Source: Phormidesmis sp. (GTDB taxonomy: Bacteria; Cyanobacteriota; Cyanobacteriia; Leptolyngbyales; Leptolyngbyaceae). From it: DNA of 64,000 nt. The notes beneath the pieces are model-generated. The model saw only the letters and a list, made by a program, of their open reading frames with translations, was not told the origin of the DNA and did not search any database. This document shows, in pieces, positions 18,721-24,136 of the stretch. Made by a program: the position numbers and the translations under genes. The DNA lies in assembly GCA_965248535.1 (NCBI GenBank), contig CBDFJR010000002.1, forward strand, positions 1,216,001 to 1,280,000. The letters are read 5' to 3'. Within the stretch, counting starts at the first letter, position 1, and each line of letters opens with the position of its first letter.

Positions 18721-19479
18721 ATGCCTTCTCTGCGTCCCGATCGCTTCCCTGTCTTTCTGCTTTTCTGCACGCTAGCGCTCACTGCCTGCACAAAACCGCT
18801 CGACTCTACCAAAATCGAAACCTCCATTCGAGACAGCGTGGTTAACCAGGGCGGAACGTCTCTCAAGTCGGTGATTTGCCCCACCGATATCAAGCCAGTC
18901 ACAGGGCAGACGTTTGAATGCGTTGGCGTGTTAGACACAGGGGGCGGAGTCGCGATCGCCGTGACCCAGCAAGACGCTCAAGGCACCGTTCAGTGGGATG
19001 TTCCTAGCGTTAAAGGACTGCTAAACCTAGCGGCTCTACAGTCTACGTTTCGTGAAGGACTGCAAAAATCTGGGGAGCCAATCAGCGTTGACTGCGGTAG
19101 CAATTCCTACAAACCTGCCAAGCCTGGAGAAATCTTTGACTGTAAAGTGCTCAAACGACCCACCAAACCAGATGCAAAAGCAAATCAGTCAGCATCCTCT
19201 ACGGCAAAGCCCAATCAGCCCGATCTGATTCAGGTCAAGGTCGATCTCTCTGGTGACATCAGTTGGCAGCCGATCGTGGAAGTAGCTCAAGCCTCCCCAG
19301 TGGCTACCAACCCGAAGACGGCTGATAAAACTGGCTCCGATCCAGCCGCGTCAGTCCCGTCTCAGCCTGAGAAACCTGCCTCTGCAAGCCCTGAGCCTGA
19401 GTTGTCGGCTCCTCCCACTTCTAAAAAATCGGCAGAAGAGTTTTTGAATCAACCCGGCGCGGCTAACGATTTTGAGTAG
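18721..19479 (+). CDS. DUF4333-like lipoprotein
   Basis: Lipobox LTAC; two SVxC...FxC repeats; Pro/Ser-rich tail. Confidence 0.7.
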   Translation: MPSLRPDRFPVFLLFCTLALTACTKPLDSTKIETSIRDSVVNQGGTSLKSVICPTDIKPVTGQTFECVGVLDTGGGVAIAVTQQDAQGTVQWDVPSVKGLLNLAALQSTFREGLQKSGEPISVDCGSNSYKPAKPGEIFDCKVLKRPTKPDAKANQSASSTAKPNQPDLIQVKVDLSGDISWQPIVEVAQASPVATNPKTADKTGSDPAASVPSQPEKPASASPEPELSAPPTSKKSAEEFLNQPGAANDFE

Positions 19480-19482
19480 CTT

Positions 19483-20109
19483 TTAGGCAACCACGATCGG
19501 GGCATCCACCTTTAGCTCTAGCGAGTCTGCACTCAGAGCAGAAATCGGCGTTGTGTCAATCAATCGCTTAAACGGCGAGTCCTCTGGCACTTCTAGGGTG
19601 GCTCCAATCCAACCAAAATTTGCTGAAGCCTTGGCATTAAACCGCAGAAAATCAGCATTCAACAAACTGTAGGCTGGAAACGCGATCGCTTGCCTTAACA
19701 GACTCACCCGCCAGCTAAAACTCAGCGAACACAGCCCCAAACTTCCTTGCCGGACAGTGACTTGCTGCGCGCCCGTCTGCCAGTCAAAGGTCGCTAGCTC
19801 CTTGGGCAATCCCCAAATCTCGCGACCGCCCGCCACCGAATCAGGATTGTCTACATAAATATGAGACACCCAAGCCCCGATCGTGGTTCCTCGCTTCACC
19901 ATGCCCGCCACCACAATCAACTCGTTATAGTCCAAGCTTGAGCCAGCCCCATAGTTTGCCAGGTAGATGCCGCCCAGGGTTTTGCCCGGAGCCGCTGGCA
20001 CGATCGCCAACCCAGGCGGAATAAACGGAGATGCTTTGGCGATGTCAATTAAATGCAGCGTTTGCAGCGCAAATCCTTTCAGTGTCCACGGTGCTTGAGG
20101 ATAGGTCAT
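19483..20109 (-). CDS. Acetoacetate decarboxylase family protein
   Basis: YPQAPW, YNEL, IYVD, GGREIWGLPKELA. Confidence 0.88.
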   Translation of the reverse strand: MTYPQAPWTLKGFALQTLHLIDIAKASPFIPPGLAIVPAAPGKTLGGIYLANYGAGSSLDYNELIVVAGMVKRGTTIGAWVSHIYVDNPDSVAGGREIWGLPKELATFDWQTGAQQVTVRQGSLGLCSLSFSWRVSLLRQAIAFPAYSLLNADFLRFNAKASANFGWIGATLEVPEDSPFKRLIDTTPISALSADSLELKVDAPIVVA

Positions 20110-21433
20110 CGAAAACCTCCGAGAAACCCTGACGCTTCAGCGCAGGGAGGAATAGGAGGGGCGACTGGATCGAGTCGCCCCTCTCTGACGCTTCTCACAG
20201 AATAGACGATATACTGTGAGATATGCAGAAAGCCTTCAAGTACCGCTTTTATCCAACACCTGAGCAAGAAACCTTGCTGAGACGGACGATGGGCTGTACT
20301 CGTTTGGTGTATAACCGTGCCCTCGCCGCTAGGACAGAAGCCTGGTATGAGCGTCAGGAGCGGGTTGGGTACGCTGAAACTTCTGCCATGCTGACCGCGT
20401 GGAAGAAGGTAGAAGACCTGCAATTTCTCAACGACGTGAGCTGCGTTCCCCTGCAACAGGGATTGCGCCATCTTCAGAAAGCGTTTAGCAACTTCTTTGC
20501 AGGACGGTCACAATACCCCAACTTCAAGAAGAAACGCAACGGAGGAAGGGCAGAGTTTACCAAATCTGCATTCAAGTTCAGAGAGGGTCAAGTCTTCCTT
20601 GCCAAGGATGCTGAACCGCTCAACATCCGATGGAGCAGGCAACTTCCACCAGAAACCGAACCCTCCACCGTCACAGTGAAACTTTCCCCTGCTGGCAGAT
20701 GGACGGTTTCTCTGGTGGTGGATATTGAGATAGAGCCACTGCCTGAATCGCTCAACCAAGTTGGGATTGATTTGGGTATCACGAGCCTGGTTGCCCTCAG
20801 TACAGGTGAAAAGGTTGCTAACCCCAAGGGCTTCGCCGCTAAACGCCGCAAACTGCGTCGAGCGCAAAAAGCGTTGAGTCGTAAGCAAAAAGGCTCGAAC
20901 AACCGACATAAAGCCAGGGTCAAAGTCGCTAGGGTCTATGCAGAGATTAGCGACACGAGAAATGATTTTCTTCACAAGTTGACGACTCGATTGGTGCGTG
21001 AAAACCAAACCATCGCCGTTGAGGATTTGTCGGTGAAGAATATGGTCAAGAATCGGAAGCTTGCCAAATCCATCAGCGATGCAGCATGGGGCGAATTGGT
21101 CAGACAGCTTGAATATAAGTGCGACTGGTATGGTCGTAGCTTTGTCAAGATTGACCGATGGTTTCCGAGTTCTAAGCGATGTGGGCATTGCGGTCACATT
21201 GTCGATCAGTTGCCGTTGGAGATTCGGGAATGGGACTGCCCTCAGTGCAGGACGCACCATGACCGGGACATCAACGCTGCTAAGAATATTCTTGCGGCAG
21301 GGCTTGCCGTGAAAGTCTGTGGAGCGAACATAAGACCGGATAAGCATTCGCTTTGAGGGCAGTTGCAATGAAGCAGAAACCTAAGTCGTGAGTCTTAGGA
21401 ATCACCGCTCTTTTAGGACGGTGAGGATGTCAA
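20110..21433 (+). mobile_element. Non-autonomous IS200/IS605-family element (tnpB only, IS1341-like)
   Basis: Left subterminal hairpin 20127-20147 preceded by GAAA. Right hairpin 21403-21423 preceded by GAAT and ending in TCAA (21430-21433). Target tetranucleotide TCAT at 20106-20109. No tnpA. Confidence 0.88.
20223..21356 (+). CDS. tnpB: RNA-guided endonuclease TnpB
   Basis: KAFKYRFYPT N-terminus, GIDLG (RuvC-I), VEDL (RuvC-II), CGHC/CPQC zinc finger, DRDINAAKNI (RuvC-III). Confidence 0.96.
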   Translation: MQKAFKYRFYPTPEQETLLRRTMGCTRLVYNRALAARTEAWYERQERVGYAETSAMLTAWKKVEDLQFLNDVSCVPLQQGLRHLQKAFSNFFAGRSQYPNFKKKRNGGRAEFTKSAFKFREGQVFLAKDAEPLNIRWSRQLPPETEPSTVTVKLSPAGRWTVSLVVDIEIEPLPESLNQVGIDLGITSLVALSTGEKVANPKGFAAKRRKLRRAQKALSRKQKGSNNRHKARVKVARVYAEISDTRNDFLHKLTTRLVRENQTIAVEDLSVKNMVKNRKLAKSISDAAWGELVRQLEYKCDWYGRSFVKIDRWFPSSKRCGHCGHIVDQLPLEIREWDCPQCRTHHDRDINAAKNILAAGLAVKVCGANIRPDKHSL

Positions 21434-21453
21434 CTCATCGGCTCCTGATCAGG
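21280..21453 (+). ncRNA. Putative TnpB omegaRNA/reRNA scaffold plus flanking guide (5' boundary approximate)
   Basis: Established architecture: the RNA overlaps the tnpB 3' end and right end, and the guide is the flank after TCAA. Not directly observed. Confidence 0.55.
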
Positions 21454-21862
21454 GGACAAACTCAACCTAGACGAGCGGCCCGATCGTGCCCTCCTCAAAG
21501 AGACAGAAATTCAGAACTAGGGCCGCGATCGTCCCTTGCAAAAAATGGTTTAGCGTTCAAAATTCGTGTTAAGAAACATGATCCCCTTGATAGAATGAGC
21601 TTAAATAGGTCTTAACCCTCTCAAAAGTGGGTTAGAAGTTTTAGTCTTTAGCAACCTCTCGATCGAGCTTCTGTAGGATTGTGATCAATCCTACAAACTT
21701 GCAATATTTCTAATTTTTATCAATTTTGTTCTCTGGCAGCCCGTTTCTCTGCTAGACCCGTCGCCTATTCAGCCCGCGATTGGTATACGTAAATACACGA
21801 TTGCAGTAGAATCAATCGTTATCTCTCAGTTCCTGCCCCGCCAACCCTCCGAGCTAGACAGC

Positions 21863-24136
21863 ATGAACGTAGCCGCTTCTACCCCCACCCCAGAGATCAC
21901 GCTTCCTGACTGGTTGCGCGATTGCTTGATTGAGCGATCGCATCCAGACAACCCCACCGCTTCCAAAGACAACGATCTGATTTGTCGAGCCTTTGAGTTT
22001 GCCTATCAGCTTCACGAAGGGCAATATAGAGCTTCAGGAGAACCCTACATTGCTCATCCAGTGGCGGTGGCGGGCTTGCTGCGAGATTTGGGCGGCAGCA
22101 GCGTCATGATCGCAGCGGGCTTCTTGCATGATGTGGTTGAAGACACTGAAATCACCTGCGACGAAATTGAGCAGCGATTTGGGATAGAAGTGCGATGTCT
22201 GGTCGAGGGAGTCACCAAGCTTTCTAAGTTCAACTTCTCTAGTAAGACAGAGCGGCAGGCCGAAAACTTTCGCCGGATGTTTTTGGCGATGGCCCAAGAT
22301 ATTCGGGTGATCATTGTCAAGCTAGCCGATCGCCTCCACAATATGCGAACTCTAGAGCATCTGCCTAACGAAAAACAGTGCCGCATTGCCCTAGAAACGC
22401 GAGAAATTTTTGCCCCCCTCGCCAATCGTTTAGGCATTGGCAATCTCAAATGGGAGCTAGAAGACCTCGCGTTTAAATATCTCGAAACTGACGCTTATCA
22501 AGATATTAAACAACGAGTCGCCGAAAAGCGGGGCGATCGCGAAAGCCAGCTTACCCAAGTCGCTCAAACATTTAAAGAGCGCATGACTCAACTAGGCGTT
22601 GACTGCATTGAGGTGAGCGGTCGCCCCAAACATCTCTACGGCATTTATCAAAAAATGCAGCGTCAGCAAAAAGATTATGAACAGATCTATGACGTGGCGG
22701 CTATTCGCATTATTGTCAACACCAACGACGAATGCTATCGAGCCTTAGCCGTTGTTCATGATATGTTTCGCCCCATTCCTGGACGCTTTAAAGATTACAT
22801 TGGGCTGCCTAAATCCAATCGCTATCAGTCGCTGCATACCGTGGTGATTGGCAGCACGGGTCGCCCCCTAGAAGTGCAGATTCGCACCCTAGAAATGCAC
22901 CACGTTGCTGAATATGGCATTGCGGCTCACTGGAAATATAAAGAAGCCGGAAGTTCTAGCACGCAGCAGATGACCACCACCGATGAAAAGTTCACCTGGT
23001 TGCGGCAGCTACTCGACTGGCAAAATGACCTCAAAGATGCTCAAGAATATTTAGAGAGCATCAAAGACAATCTGTTTGATGGCGATGTTTTCGTGTTTAC
23101 GCCCCGCGGCGAAGTGGTGTCTCTTGGCTCTCGATCGACCCCCGTTGATTTTGCCTATCGCATTCACACTGAGGTGGGCAATCGCTGTGCAGGCGCTAAA
23201 GTCAATGGGCGAATGGTCACGCTCGATACGACATTGCACAACGGTGACATTATTGAAATTCTGACCCAAAAAAATGCTCGCCCCAGCTTAGACTGGCTCA
23301 ATTTTGTCGTCACCTCCGGGGCACGGAACCGAATTAGACAGTGGTATAAGCGATCGCACCGCAGCGAAAACGTCTTGCGTGGGCGCGAAATGCTAGAAAA
23401 AGAACTGGGCAAAAATGGCTTTGAAGCGCTGCTCAAGTCTTCGCCCATGCAAGCCGCCGCCGAACGATGTAACTATCACAGCGTCGAAGATTTATTAGCG
23501 GCGATCGGGTATGGCGAGATGACCCTCAATCTGGCCCTCAATCGAATTCGAGAAGCGGTCAAAGCCCAGCAGCCCCTTGCCAAAGTCTCTGACGCTGACA
23601 GTATTTCGGCTGATCCCCAGCTTTTATTGCCCTCTGCTCCGATGCTGCGATCCTTGCCGCCCGCGACGACGACAAAATCCCCGATCGCCGGGGTCGAGGG
23701 ATTGCTCTATCACCTCGCAGGCTGCTGCAACCCGGTGCCCGGTGAAGCGATTATTGGGGTCGTCACCCGCAGCAATCGCGGCATCTCCATTCATCGTCAA
23801 GGCTGTAGCAACTTAGAGCAAGTTGACGGCGATCGCTTAGTGCCCGTGAGTTGGAACCCCACCAGCCGACAGGGTGGCAGACCTCAAACCTATCCAGTCT
23901 GCATTCAGATCGATGTCATCGATCGCGTCGGGGTGCTCAAAGATATTCTGTCTCGCTTGACCGACAACACGATCAACGTTCGCAATGCTCAAGTCAAAAC
24001 CTTTCCCGATCAGACTGCTGTCATCGATTTGGGCATTGACATTTGCGACCATGCACAGCTAGAGCGCACGTTTGCCCAAGTCAGAAAAATGACCGACGTG
24101 TTAAATTTGCGCCGCGTCAATCAGGTCGAAGAATAG
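21863..24136 (+). CDS. rel: Bifunctional (p)ppGpp synthetase/hydrolase
   Basis: HEGQYRASGEPY, LHDVVEDT, KLADRLHNMRTL, YQSLHT, EVQIRT; TGS, CC and ACT domains. Confidence 0.97.
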   Translation: MNVAASTPTPEITLPDWLRDCLIERSHPDNPTASKDNDLICRAFEFAYQLHEGQYRASGEPYIAHPVAVAGLLRDLGGSSVMIAAGFLHDVVEDTEITCDEIEQRFGIEVRCLVEGVTKLSKFNFSSKTERQAENFRRMFLAMAQDIRVIIVKLADRLHNMRTLEHLPNEKQCRIALETREIFAPLANRLGIGNLKWELEDLAFKYLETDAYQDIKQRVAEKRGDRESQLTQVAQTFKERMTQLGVDCIEVSGRPKHLYGIYQKMQRQQKDYEQIYDVAAIRIIVNTNDECYRALAVVHDMFRPIPGRFKDYIGLPKSNRYQSLHTVVIGSTGRPLEVQIRTLEMHHVAEYGIAAHWKYKEAGSSSTQQMTTTDEKFTWLRQLLDWQNDLKDAQEYLESIKDNLFDGDVFVFTPRGEVVSLGSRSTPVDFAYRIHTEVGNRCAGAKVNGRMVTLDTTLHNGDIIEILTQKNARPSLDWLNFVVTSGARNRIRQWYKRSHRSENVLRGREMLEKELGKNGFEALLKSSPMQAAAERCNYHSVEDLLAAIGYGEMTLNLALNRIREAVKAQQPLAKVSDADSISADPQLLLPSAPMLRSLPPATTTKSPIAGVEGLLYHLAGCCNPVPGEAIIGVVTRSNRGISIHRQGCSNLEQVDGDRLVPVSWNPTSRQGGRPQTYPVCIQIDVIDRVGVLKDILSRLTDNTINVRNAQVKTFPDQTAVIDLGIDICDHAQLERTFAQVRKMTDVLNLRRVNQVEE

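Follow-up and report, generated by a model that had tools for sequence, protein, structure and literature searches.

What becomes of a gene when a mobile element inserts exactly at its start codon, and how common are such insertions among the copies that survive? This question is raised by a locus in a 64,000-nucleotide stretch of the genome of Phormidesmis sp. (contig CBDFJR010000002.1, positions 1,216,001 to 1,280,000), here called the window, which lies on contig C2 of a 5.03-Mb cyanobacterial genome that we refer to as G000. At this locus, an IS200/IS605 element carrying the RNA-guided nuclease gene tnpB abuts the ATG of an acetoacetate decarboxylase (ADC)-family gene. An earlier reading of the window, hereafter the original prediction, had proposed that the element was inserted precisely at this start codon and that its left end supplied a replacement Shine-Dalgarno (SD) sequence, and possibly a promoter, to the gene. 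We found that approximately one-fifth of the surviving TCAT-targeted insertions in this family lie exactly on start codons, a real excess over control sites that is far above the intragenic rate. This family-level pattern is of more interest than the textbook IS608-like element itself. The features on which it rests in the window are as follows.

20110 to 21433, plus strand: IS200/IS605 element, TnpB-only (IS1341-type), 1,324 bp, delimited by homology breaks among copies in G000 and by empty alleles.
19483 to 20109, minus strand: ADC-family gene, 208 amino acids (Pfam ADC, E = 5e-22); its ATG (20109 to 20107) adjoins the left end of the element.
20106 to 20109, plus strand: TCAT, the tetranucleotide targeted by the element; it is cleavage site C_L and a putative transposon-adjacent motif (TAM), found at 4 of 4 left ends in G000.

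The insertion at the ADC gene is precise and recent

The G000 genome contains two further full-length copies of the element (88% and 80% identical to the window copy), one internally deleted copy, and one MITE-like copy (MITE, miniature inverted-repeat transposable element). Homology among these copies ends exactly after TCAT on the left (4/4) and at ...GGATGTCAA on the right (5/5). The deleted copy (C5:249865-250867; L004/L005) is decayed and has no recognisable left end, and its right end is 97% identical to that of the window copy. The MITE-like copy (C5:1507597-1508017; L006/L018) is about 420 bp long and joins a family left end, with TCAT, guide, and hairpin, to the right end ..GGATGTCAA without tnpB. 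Two other right-end-like sequences in G000, at C2:1750643 and C5:377473, each consist of a hairpin plus ..TATGTCAA and are members of a more distant IS605-type family.

Empty alleles gave the same boundaries. In all seven congeners, the right flank of the window from position 21434 runs straight into the ADC ATG, mostly as gatgag followed by ATGAGC. The empty junction that had been predicted, 20109 joined to 21434 with 1,324 bases omitted, was also present in contigs from two public sequencing runs, at depths of 24.4 and 12.4, compared with 33.4 and 7.4, respectively, for the occupied left junction. A contig from run X2 differs from the window at 21 of 622 bases (approximately 3.4%) over positions 19483 to 20104, so its empty form probably comes from a sister strain. 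Each empty allele consists of the left flank plus the right flank with no base gained or lost and no target duplication, and no empty allele with another junction was found in the seven congeners or the two runs. Both boundaries of the IS605-type element are thus as claimed, and the insertion is precise and free of duplication. It is also recent, because it is absent from all seven congeners and polymorphic in the public runs.

The other two full-length insertions are likewise private to G000. Their outward open reading frames (ORFs) encode a 121-amino-acid glyoxalase-family protein and a 113-amino-acid SMR/EamA-like membrane protein, with Pfam domains that begin at residues 8 and 15. The glyoxalase gene site is empty in 7/7 congeners, whose gene begins there with ATGG and not ATGA; the SMR gene had no DNA match in the seven congeners with the query used. 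The outward ORF of the MITE-like copy is only 11 codons long.

Orthologs of the ADC gene were found in 19 of the 41 genomes searched (G000 counted), including all 7 of the same genus. They open with M-x-Y-P-x-A-P-W at aligned residue 1 in 14/14 loci examined. Because they begin at the same residue despite unrelated upstream sequences, the start codon at 20109-20107 is genuine. The TCAT at 20106-20109 is the reverse complement of ATGA, that is, of the first codon of the ADC gene plus one base. When positions 20110 to 21433 are removed in silico, the minus strand reads AGGAG-ccgatgag-ATG, which restores the native SD spacing as the original prediction had stated. In the occupied allele this AGGAG, which corresponds to an SD-like GGAG or GGGA conserved in congeners, is stranded at 21446-21442 on the minus strand. 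The native site contains two ATGA motifs three bases apart (gATGAgATGA; 21434-21439 in the window, and congeners L022-L028), and the second TCAT, one base past the right end, is ancestral rather than a target duplication.

Guide and target covary across cyanobacteria

The terminal features of the element that bear on its target choice are given below.

20123 to 20126, plus strand: left guide G_L, GAAA, which adjoins the foot of the hairpin on its 5' side and covaries with the target.
20127 to 20147, plus strand: IP_L, the imperfect palindrome of the left end, containing a single bulged A (DNA fold z = -4.15).
21399 to 21402, plus strand: right guide G_R, GAAT, within a GGAATC that is invariant in 20/20 aligned right ends.
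21403 to 21423, plus strand: IP_R, the imperfect palindrome of the right end, containing a single bulged C (DNA fold z = -2.73; covariation).
21430 to 21433, plus strand: right cleavage site TCAA, whose last base is 10 nucleotides (nt) 3' of the IP_R foot.

Subterminal imperfect palindromes, by which IS200/IS605 elements are recognised, were found by DNA folding at both ends, and the element lacks terminal inverted repeats. IP_R shows compensatory changes at 7 of 8 predicted pairs among 20 sequences, and the 20 aligned right ends of the family always retain GGAATC, the hairpin, and ...GTCAA. On the left, 17 nt separate the target TCAT from the foot of IP_L. The cleavage sites appear to be read by the 4-nt guides that lie 5' of the hairpin feet. 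In IS608, the guides AAAG and GAAT pair with TTAC and TCAA, and the same rule predicts TCAT from the guide GAAA. The coordinates originally given for TCAT, the guides, the hairpins, TCAA, both SD sequences, and a TATTCT hexamer discussed below were all correct, and all 4 left ends in G000 adjoin TCAT.

We collected family loci through a TnpB search of genome contigs, a search of metagenome contigs, and another search of genomes that started from a relative of 67% identity, with 80 cyanobacterial loci from each; 16 of the 80 in the first set received no left-end assignment. A 15-base left-end pattern run against genome contigs was of little use, as nearly all of its matches were chance occurrences in unrelated phyla. 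The guides GAAA and GAGA occur with the target TCAT, and AAAA and AAGA occur with TTAT. With left ends assigned by a guide-motif regular expression, which favours rule-consistent candidates but met a single candidate at most loci, guide position 1 agreed with target position 2 (G to C, A to T) in 64 of the 67 left ends so assigned, with 3 mismatches. The metagenome and second genome sets gave the same guide-target pattern. At several loci (L215, L219, L223/L289, L312, and L382), the flank is TTAT or TAAT though the guide is GAAA or GAGA; these rule-breaking copies may be mutated, immobile elements, or there may be some tolerance at target position 2. No base preference was seen outside T(C/T)AT in 72 TCAT and 34 TTAT flanks, and a longer target is thereby ruled out.

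Across cyanobacteria, the use of TCAT or TTAT tracks the guide (GAAA/GAGA or AAAA/AAGA). This covariation over approximately 100 copies demonstrates cleanly, in a natural setting, that target choice is programmable. These TnpB nucleases would use TCAT as their TAM as well, a point relevant to their use as editors.

TCAT insertions are in excess on start codons

The empty site of each copy was rebuilt in silico and assigned to one of three classes. An ATGA was scored as start-like if at least 100 codons were open downstream, at most 25 were open upstream, and there was no in-frame ATG upstream. Duplicates, copies with flanks shorter than 304 nt on the left or 80 nt on the right, and copies with no recognised right end were left out of the count. 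We used the three-class comparison and dropped a mask-based non-coding baseline, which was confounded by upstream GTG and TTG starts.

The 90 evaluable unique TCAT insertions comprised 20 start-like, 50 non-coding, and 20 intragenic ones. Among 3,071 control ATGA sites, 124 (4.0%) were start-like, 881 non-coding, and 2,066 intragenic, and the start-like fraction of all ATGA sites in the window's genome was similar (1,426/36,158; 3.9%). The excess that the original prediction had anticipated was therefore borne out (20/90 versus 124/3,071). By independently fetched set, the start-like insertions numbered 11/41, 3/19, and 6/30. Statistical tests were performed without the window copy, which was the source of the hypothesis, and without L281, a family member on a metagenome contig. 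The latter was excluded by hand because it passes the start-like rule despite being nested in another, decayed tnpB, at an ATGA inside that gene. With the resulting split of 18/50/20, start-like sites were enriched over all sites (p = 1.3e-8), over non-coding sites (odds ratio [OR] 2.56, p = 0.0019), and over intragenic sites (OR 15, p = 1e-12); the OR for non-coding over intragenic sites was 5.9.

Pfam searches confirmed that the ORFs behind start-codon insertions are real genes, with domains that begin close to the N terminus; the families include LigT, methylpurine glycosylase (MPG), a Tat-signal binding protein, CorA, phosphoribosyltransferase (PRTase), transglutaminase-like, DUF4350, amino-acid permease, and DUF3172. 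The same check identified L167 (Uma2) and L217 as internal insertions.

The insertions are also sharply placed. On the left-end side, within 0 to 100 nt upstream of start-like ATGs, 20 TCAT insertions lie at distance 0 and 3 lie at 1 to 100 nt, whereas a share of 0.53 was expected at distance 0 (p = 0.0007; p = 0.0019 with 18/21). Insertions 1 to 100 nt upstream on this side are rarer for TCAT elements (3/89) than for TTAT elements (7/41; p = 0.011). On the right-end side, 17/89 TCAT and 8/41 TTAT elements lie within 100 nt of gene starts.

Because per-site occupancy of start codons is approximately 15 times that of intragenic sites, insertions at start codons either are tolerated much better than intragenic ones or arise more frequently. 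Most of the start-codon excess follows from two circumstances: the target is the complement of ATGA, and intragenic copies have been lost from the surviving set. Neither circumstance accounts for the 2.6-fold surplus that is left relative to other non-coding sites, nor for the scarcity of insertions just upstream of starts. The literature searched, including passages of PMC11448079 and PMC3201880, contained no account of IS200/IS605 elements docking on start codons or of TCAT as a target or TAM; ISfinder and subscription journals lay outside this search. The docking pattern thus appears to be previously undescribed.

The left end as a possible leader for the adjoining gene

Three features bear on what the left end of the element places in front of the gene.

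20116 to 20120, minus strand: SD-like GGAGG provided by the left end, 6 nt upstream of the ADC ATG, seen in the sequence and in 3/3 full-length copies in G000.
20156 to 20183, plus strand: second hairpin, perfect, 11 bp, GC-rich, between IP_L and the tnpB promoter (DNA fold).
20193 to 20221, plus strand: putative tnpB promoter region, assigned from sequence, containing AGAATA (TATTCT on the minus strand).

In the occupied allele, the minus strand reads GGAGG (20120-20116), TTTTCG, and ATG. This arrangement is kept in all three full-length copies in G000, with one spacer base changed in one of them. The single copy in the congener G002 has GGAGG-TTCCCG-ATG and does not lie on a start (12-amino-acid ORF), and the MITE-like copy has TCTCC in place of CCTCC. 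Of the replacement SD proposed originally, the motif and its 6-nt spacing therefore stand, as does its retention in the subfamily; CCTCC at positions +7 to +11, whose conservation was one test set for the idea, is limited to a subfamily. An SD motif at a fixed distance from the element end holds within the window's subfamily alone. Among 65 unique TCAT left ends, 18 have GGAG, GAGG, or AGGA at -16 to -4, and most instead read ...CACCCACATTTTCG directly before the ATG. Start codons are occupied by left ends with such a core (5/18) about as often as by those without it (11/47; OR 1.26, p = 0.75), and 786 of 3,529 start-like ATGs in the window's genome (22%) have one. Because the core is confined to 18/65 left ends and shows no tie to start-codon occupancy, a replacement SD maintained by selection is disfavoured by the test that accompanied the original prediction. 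The GGAGG would be a coincidence, a subfamily-specific by-product of the left-end sequence and not a conserved adaptation.

What the left ends have in general is U-richness immediately ahead of the ATG. Positions -20 to +13 are predicted to be as accessible in occupied as in empty forms (0.52 versus 0.51 at 19 sites, p = 0.96). With respect to transcription, the TATTCT hexamer in which the original prediction saw a possible outward promoter is present (AGAATA at 20199-20204, read on the minus strand at 20204-20199). It lies within a conserved palindrome around the tnpB -10 box. That box, a -10-like TATACT at 20210-20215, ends 7 nt before the tnpB ATG and is flanked by the inverted repeat TCTCACAG/CTGTGAGA. 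Most family members show the inverted repeat and a TATAAT-like box, a layout that suggests a leaderless tnpB mRNA plus an operator. The hairpin at 20156-20183, found in close copies and not family-wide, may act as an insulator or terminator, either shielding tnpB from outside transcription or blocking outward transcripts.

Rescue of the ADC gene by a group I intron, as in an IStron, was ruled out: no intron match at E<=1 was found in 19000-22500, and splicing cannot rescue the gene because it is antisense to tnpB.

Gene content and surroundings of the element

20223 to 21356, plus strand: tnpB, 377 amino acids, RNA-guided nuclease gene with intact RuvC D/E/D motif context (Pfam and ISDra2 structure match).
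21316 to 21433, plus strand: putative omega-RNA scaffold that overlaps the 3' end of tnpB and reaches the right end, proposed from what is known of the family.
21434 to 21453, plus strand: right flank, putative omega-RNA guide on the TnpB model; antisense to the native ADC 5' untranslated region, it holds the stranded AGGAG.

The element at 20110-21433 has one ORF, tnpB, and contains no transposase gene. The TnpB protein matches OrfB_IS605 (PF01385, E = 1e-33), the Cas12f1-like TNB domain (PF07282, E = 2e-25), and HTH_OrfB_IS605 (PF12323, E = 6e-22), and residues 2 to 362 align with the ISDra2 TnpB structures 8BF8 and 8EXA (E = 1e-76). The GIDLG, VEDL, and HDRD contexts are kept in this alignment, and we take the residues within them to have catalytic roles. 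Because these motif contexts are intact, a nuclease-dead, TldR-like repressor was ruled out. The element is therefore an ordinary non-autonomous TnpB-only (IS1341) member of IS200/IS605 with IS608-like ends. Elsewhere in the genome there are 11 Y1_Tnp matches, with at least 5 open frames above the cut-off; 5 of the matches cover nearly the whole profile in open frames of 134 to 183 amino acids. A loose regular expression for right-end-like motifs, aimed at the element of a cognate TnpA, was far too unspecific (260 matches).

In the TnpB model, the omega-RNA comes from the 3' end of the element and the TAM is the transposon target. Conserved stems are present in the presumed omega-RNA region of the aligned right ends. 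An Rfam match to RAGATH-18 at 21316-21379 is below threshold (24.3 bits versus a gathering score of 44.9; E = 0.21); PMC11061315 ties RAGATH-18-derived RNAs to the TnpBs of IS607.

A RelA/SpoT-family gene (21863-24136) is divergent from the ADC gene, and this synteny is kept in 7/7 congeners. The element lies in the 430-bp divergent promoter region common to the two genes, which also contains a promoter-like site at 21569-21596; tnpB is co-directional with relA.

Possible reasons why insertions on start codons persist

The window holds an ordinary, recent, TCAT-targeted TnpB-only element. We consider it probable that start codons tolerate such insertions since the coding sequence stays whole, and that the GGAGG is a by-product. 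The top strand of the element would be cut out as a single-stranded circle by a Y1 transposase whose gene lies elsewhere in the genome, and the circle would be reinserted 3' of a tetranucleotide pairing with the 4-nt guide 5' of the left hairpin. Because TCAT complements ATGA, every ATG-A start on the opposite strand would be a legal target. The window copy would have landed in this way between the native SD sequence and the ATG of the ADC-family gene. Tolerance is likeliest to stem from the coding sequence remaining whole; the left end would place before the ATG a U-rich and equally unstructured leader, with a well-spaced GGAGG in the window's subfamily, which may keep the gene competent for translation. 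TnpB with its omega-RNA, recognising TCAT as TAM plus the right flank, may in addition cut empty alleles and so favour retention of the element.

Several observations weigh against this account. The start-like class rests on ORF rules rather than annotation, the control ATGA sites were drawn from the same flanks as the insertions, and the expected share of 0.53 at distance 0 derives from one genome, the window's. The excess over non-coding sites is modest and varies by set (3/19 in the metagenome set). The non-coding controls surely include constrained sites, so that starts may be tolerated merely like truly neutral DNA. With regard to expression, a consensus scan of 19900-21700, which covered promoters with a -35 element, found no outward sigma-70-type site in the left end. 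On the minus strand, DNA folding placed two strong hairpins between any internal promoter and the ADC ATG, and any read-through from the native promoter would meet a terminator-like hairpin at 21399-21380. Finally, at positions invariant in the seven congeners, the ADC protein of G000 has 9 private changes, versus 0 to 7 in congeners, and the glyoxalase-family protein has 7, versus 0 to 3. In the neighbouring RelA control, G000 has 3 in 301 residues, versus 1 to 3 in congeners. The surplus in the two genes behind insertions hints at relaxed constraint.

This surplus is what would be expected if the gene, cut from its promoter and native SD, were simply off, with copies persisting because they are young, polymorphic, or in dispensable genes; empty alleles in polyploid cyanobacteria or mixed populations may cover the loss. 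We regard such silent knock-outs as a rather unlikely explanation. The co-occurrence of empty and occupied alleles at similar depth in both runs, the absence of the insertion from the congeners, the minus-strand hairpins and terminator-like sites, and the mostly accessory-looking target genes all fit it. However, start codons should then be occupied no more than intragenic sites, and their occupancy per site is approximately 15 times higher. The start-codon ORFs examined by Pfam are all full length with complete domains, and for one start-codon insertion that is present in two copies, L164 and L264, the two sequences differ at 3 of 1,032 bases, all of them synonymous, in what is a tiny sample. 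For the ADC gene itself, ORF intactness proves little, because that insertion is young and polymorphic. The empty form in run X2, moreover, probably belongs to other cells, of a strain diverged by approximately 3.4%.

It is also conceivable, and in our view less likely still, that the left end evolved as a portable translation-initiation region, with GGAGG placed 6 nt from the ATG and perhaps a promoter that faces outward, such that the element docks at a start, keeps the gene on, and rewires its expression. The ideal spacing in the three full-length copies, all on the starts of real genes, and the unchanged predicted accessibility would agree with this, as would the 15-fold occupancy. The scarcity of TCAT elements 1 to 100 nt upstream would fit as well, if any ATG adjacent to the left end can become a start. 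The conserved promoter palindrome repeatedly shows, on its minus strand, hexamers of the form TAnnnT (TATTCT, TATTTT, and TATCTT), but the tnpB promoter or operator accounts for that palindrome, and the consensus scan gave no outward promoter. The distribution of the SD-like core among left ends, its lack of relation to occupancy, and its presence at 22% of start-like ATGs in the window's genome likewise argue against a dedicated adaptation, as do the MITE-like and G002 copies, which belong to the same subfamily and are not on starts, and the hints of relaxed constraint. A broader form of the idea, to which we give similarly little weight, is that the left end is a portable 5' leader that swaps expression signals at starts. 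Such a leader would be U-rich and unstructured, would carry GGAGG in some sublineages, and might be transcribed divergently from the tnpB promoter, which is palindromic. If true, docking would replace the native promoter and ribosome-binding site without destroying the gene, these elements would be natural expression-signal swappers, and the status of start codons as the best-populated site class would be explained. A bias in targeting seems no more probable: integration would need an unpaired single-stranded tetranucleotide, and start regions, being unstructured and beside AT-rich promoters, would be hit more often. Consistent with this, enrichment near gene starts is also seen on the right-end side, no sequence preference exists past the tetranucleotide, and the mean unpaired probability near these starts is approximately 0.5. 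Such a bias leaves unexplained why TCAT elements, and not TTAT elements, are scarce just upstream on the left-end side, and purifying selection predicts depletion inside genes equally well.

The docking pattern has consequences whichever way the genes behave. Should they stay on, a selfish element would have a simple route to rewiring expression at many unrelated genes. Should they be off, start codons would be a blind spot, with knock-outs that look to annotation pipelines like harmless intergenic insertions.

Comparison with known systems

The element can be set beside several known systems. In IStrons, likewise derived from IS200/IS605, self-splicing restores the mRNA, and their orientation is sense; the window element differs in its antisense placement relative to the ADC gene and in having no group I intron match. 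The DDE elements IS10, with pOUT, and ISAba1 have mapped outward promoters. The notion of an insertion sequence end giving expression signals to the adjoining gene is shared with them, but the window element has no outward promoter in our scan and would supply, if anything, a leader or SD abutting the native ATG.

ISDra2 of Deinococcus radiodurans carries tnpA and targets the pentanucleotide TTGAT. Its TnpB (PDB 8BF8, 8EXA, and 8H1J) aligns with that of the window over residues 2 to 362 with the catalytic motif contexts kept; the window element differs in its tetranucleotide target and in that its TAM and omega-RNA are predicted only.

With IS608 of Helicobacter pylori the element shares subterminal imperfect hairpins, 4-nt guides directly 5' of their feet, insertion 3' of a tetranucleotide without duplication, and a right cleavage site TCAA that ends 10 nt 3' of the right foot. 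Its right guide GAAT is presumably that of IS608 too, as the original prediction had it. In contrast to IS608, the target is TCAT (TTAT in sister lineages) rather than TTAC, its distance from the left foot is 17 nt and not 19, tnpA is absent, and the host is a cyanobacterium. For IS608, PMC3201880 gives TCAA 10 nt 3' of the right foot, a target 19 nt from the left foot, and guides directly 5' of the foot. From IS1341-type members the element does not differ in kind: like them, it is a lone tnpB flanked by IS605-type ends, and the genome that holds it also has several diverged copies, a MITE-like derivative, and transposase genes located outside the element.

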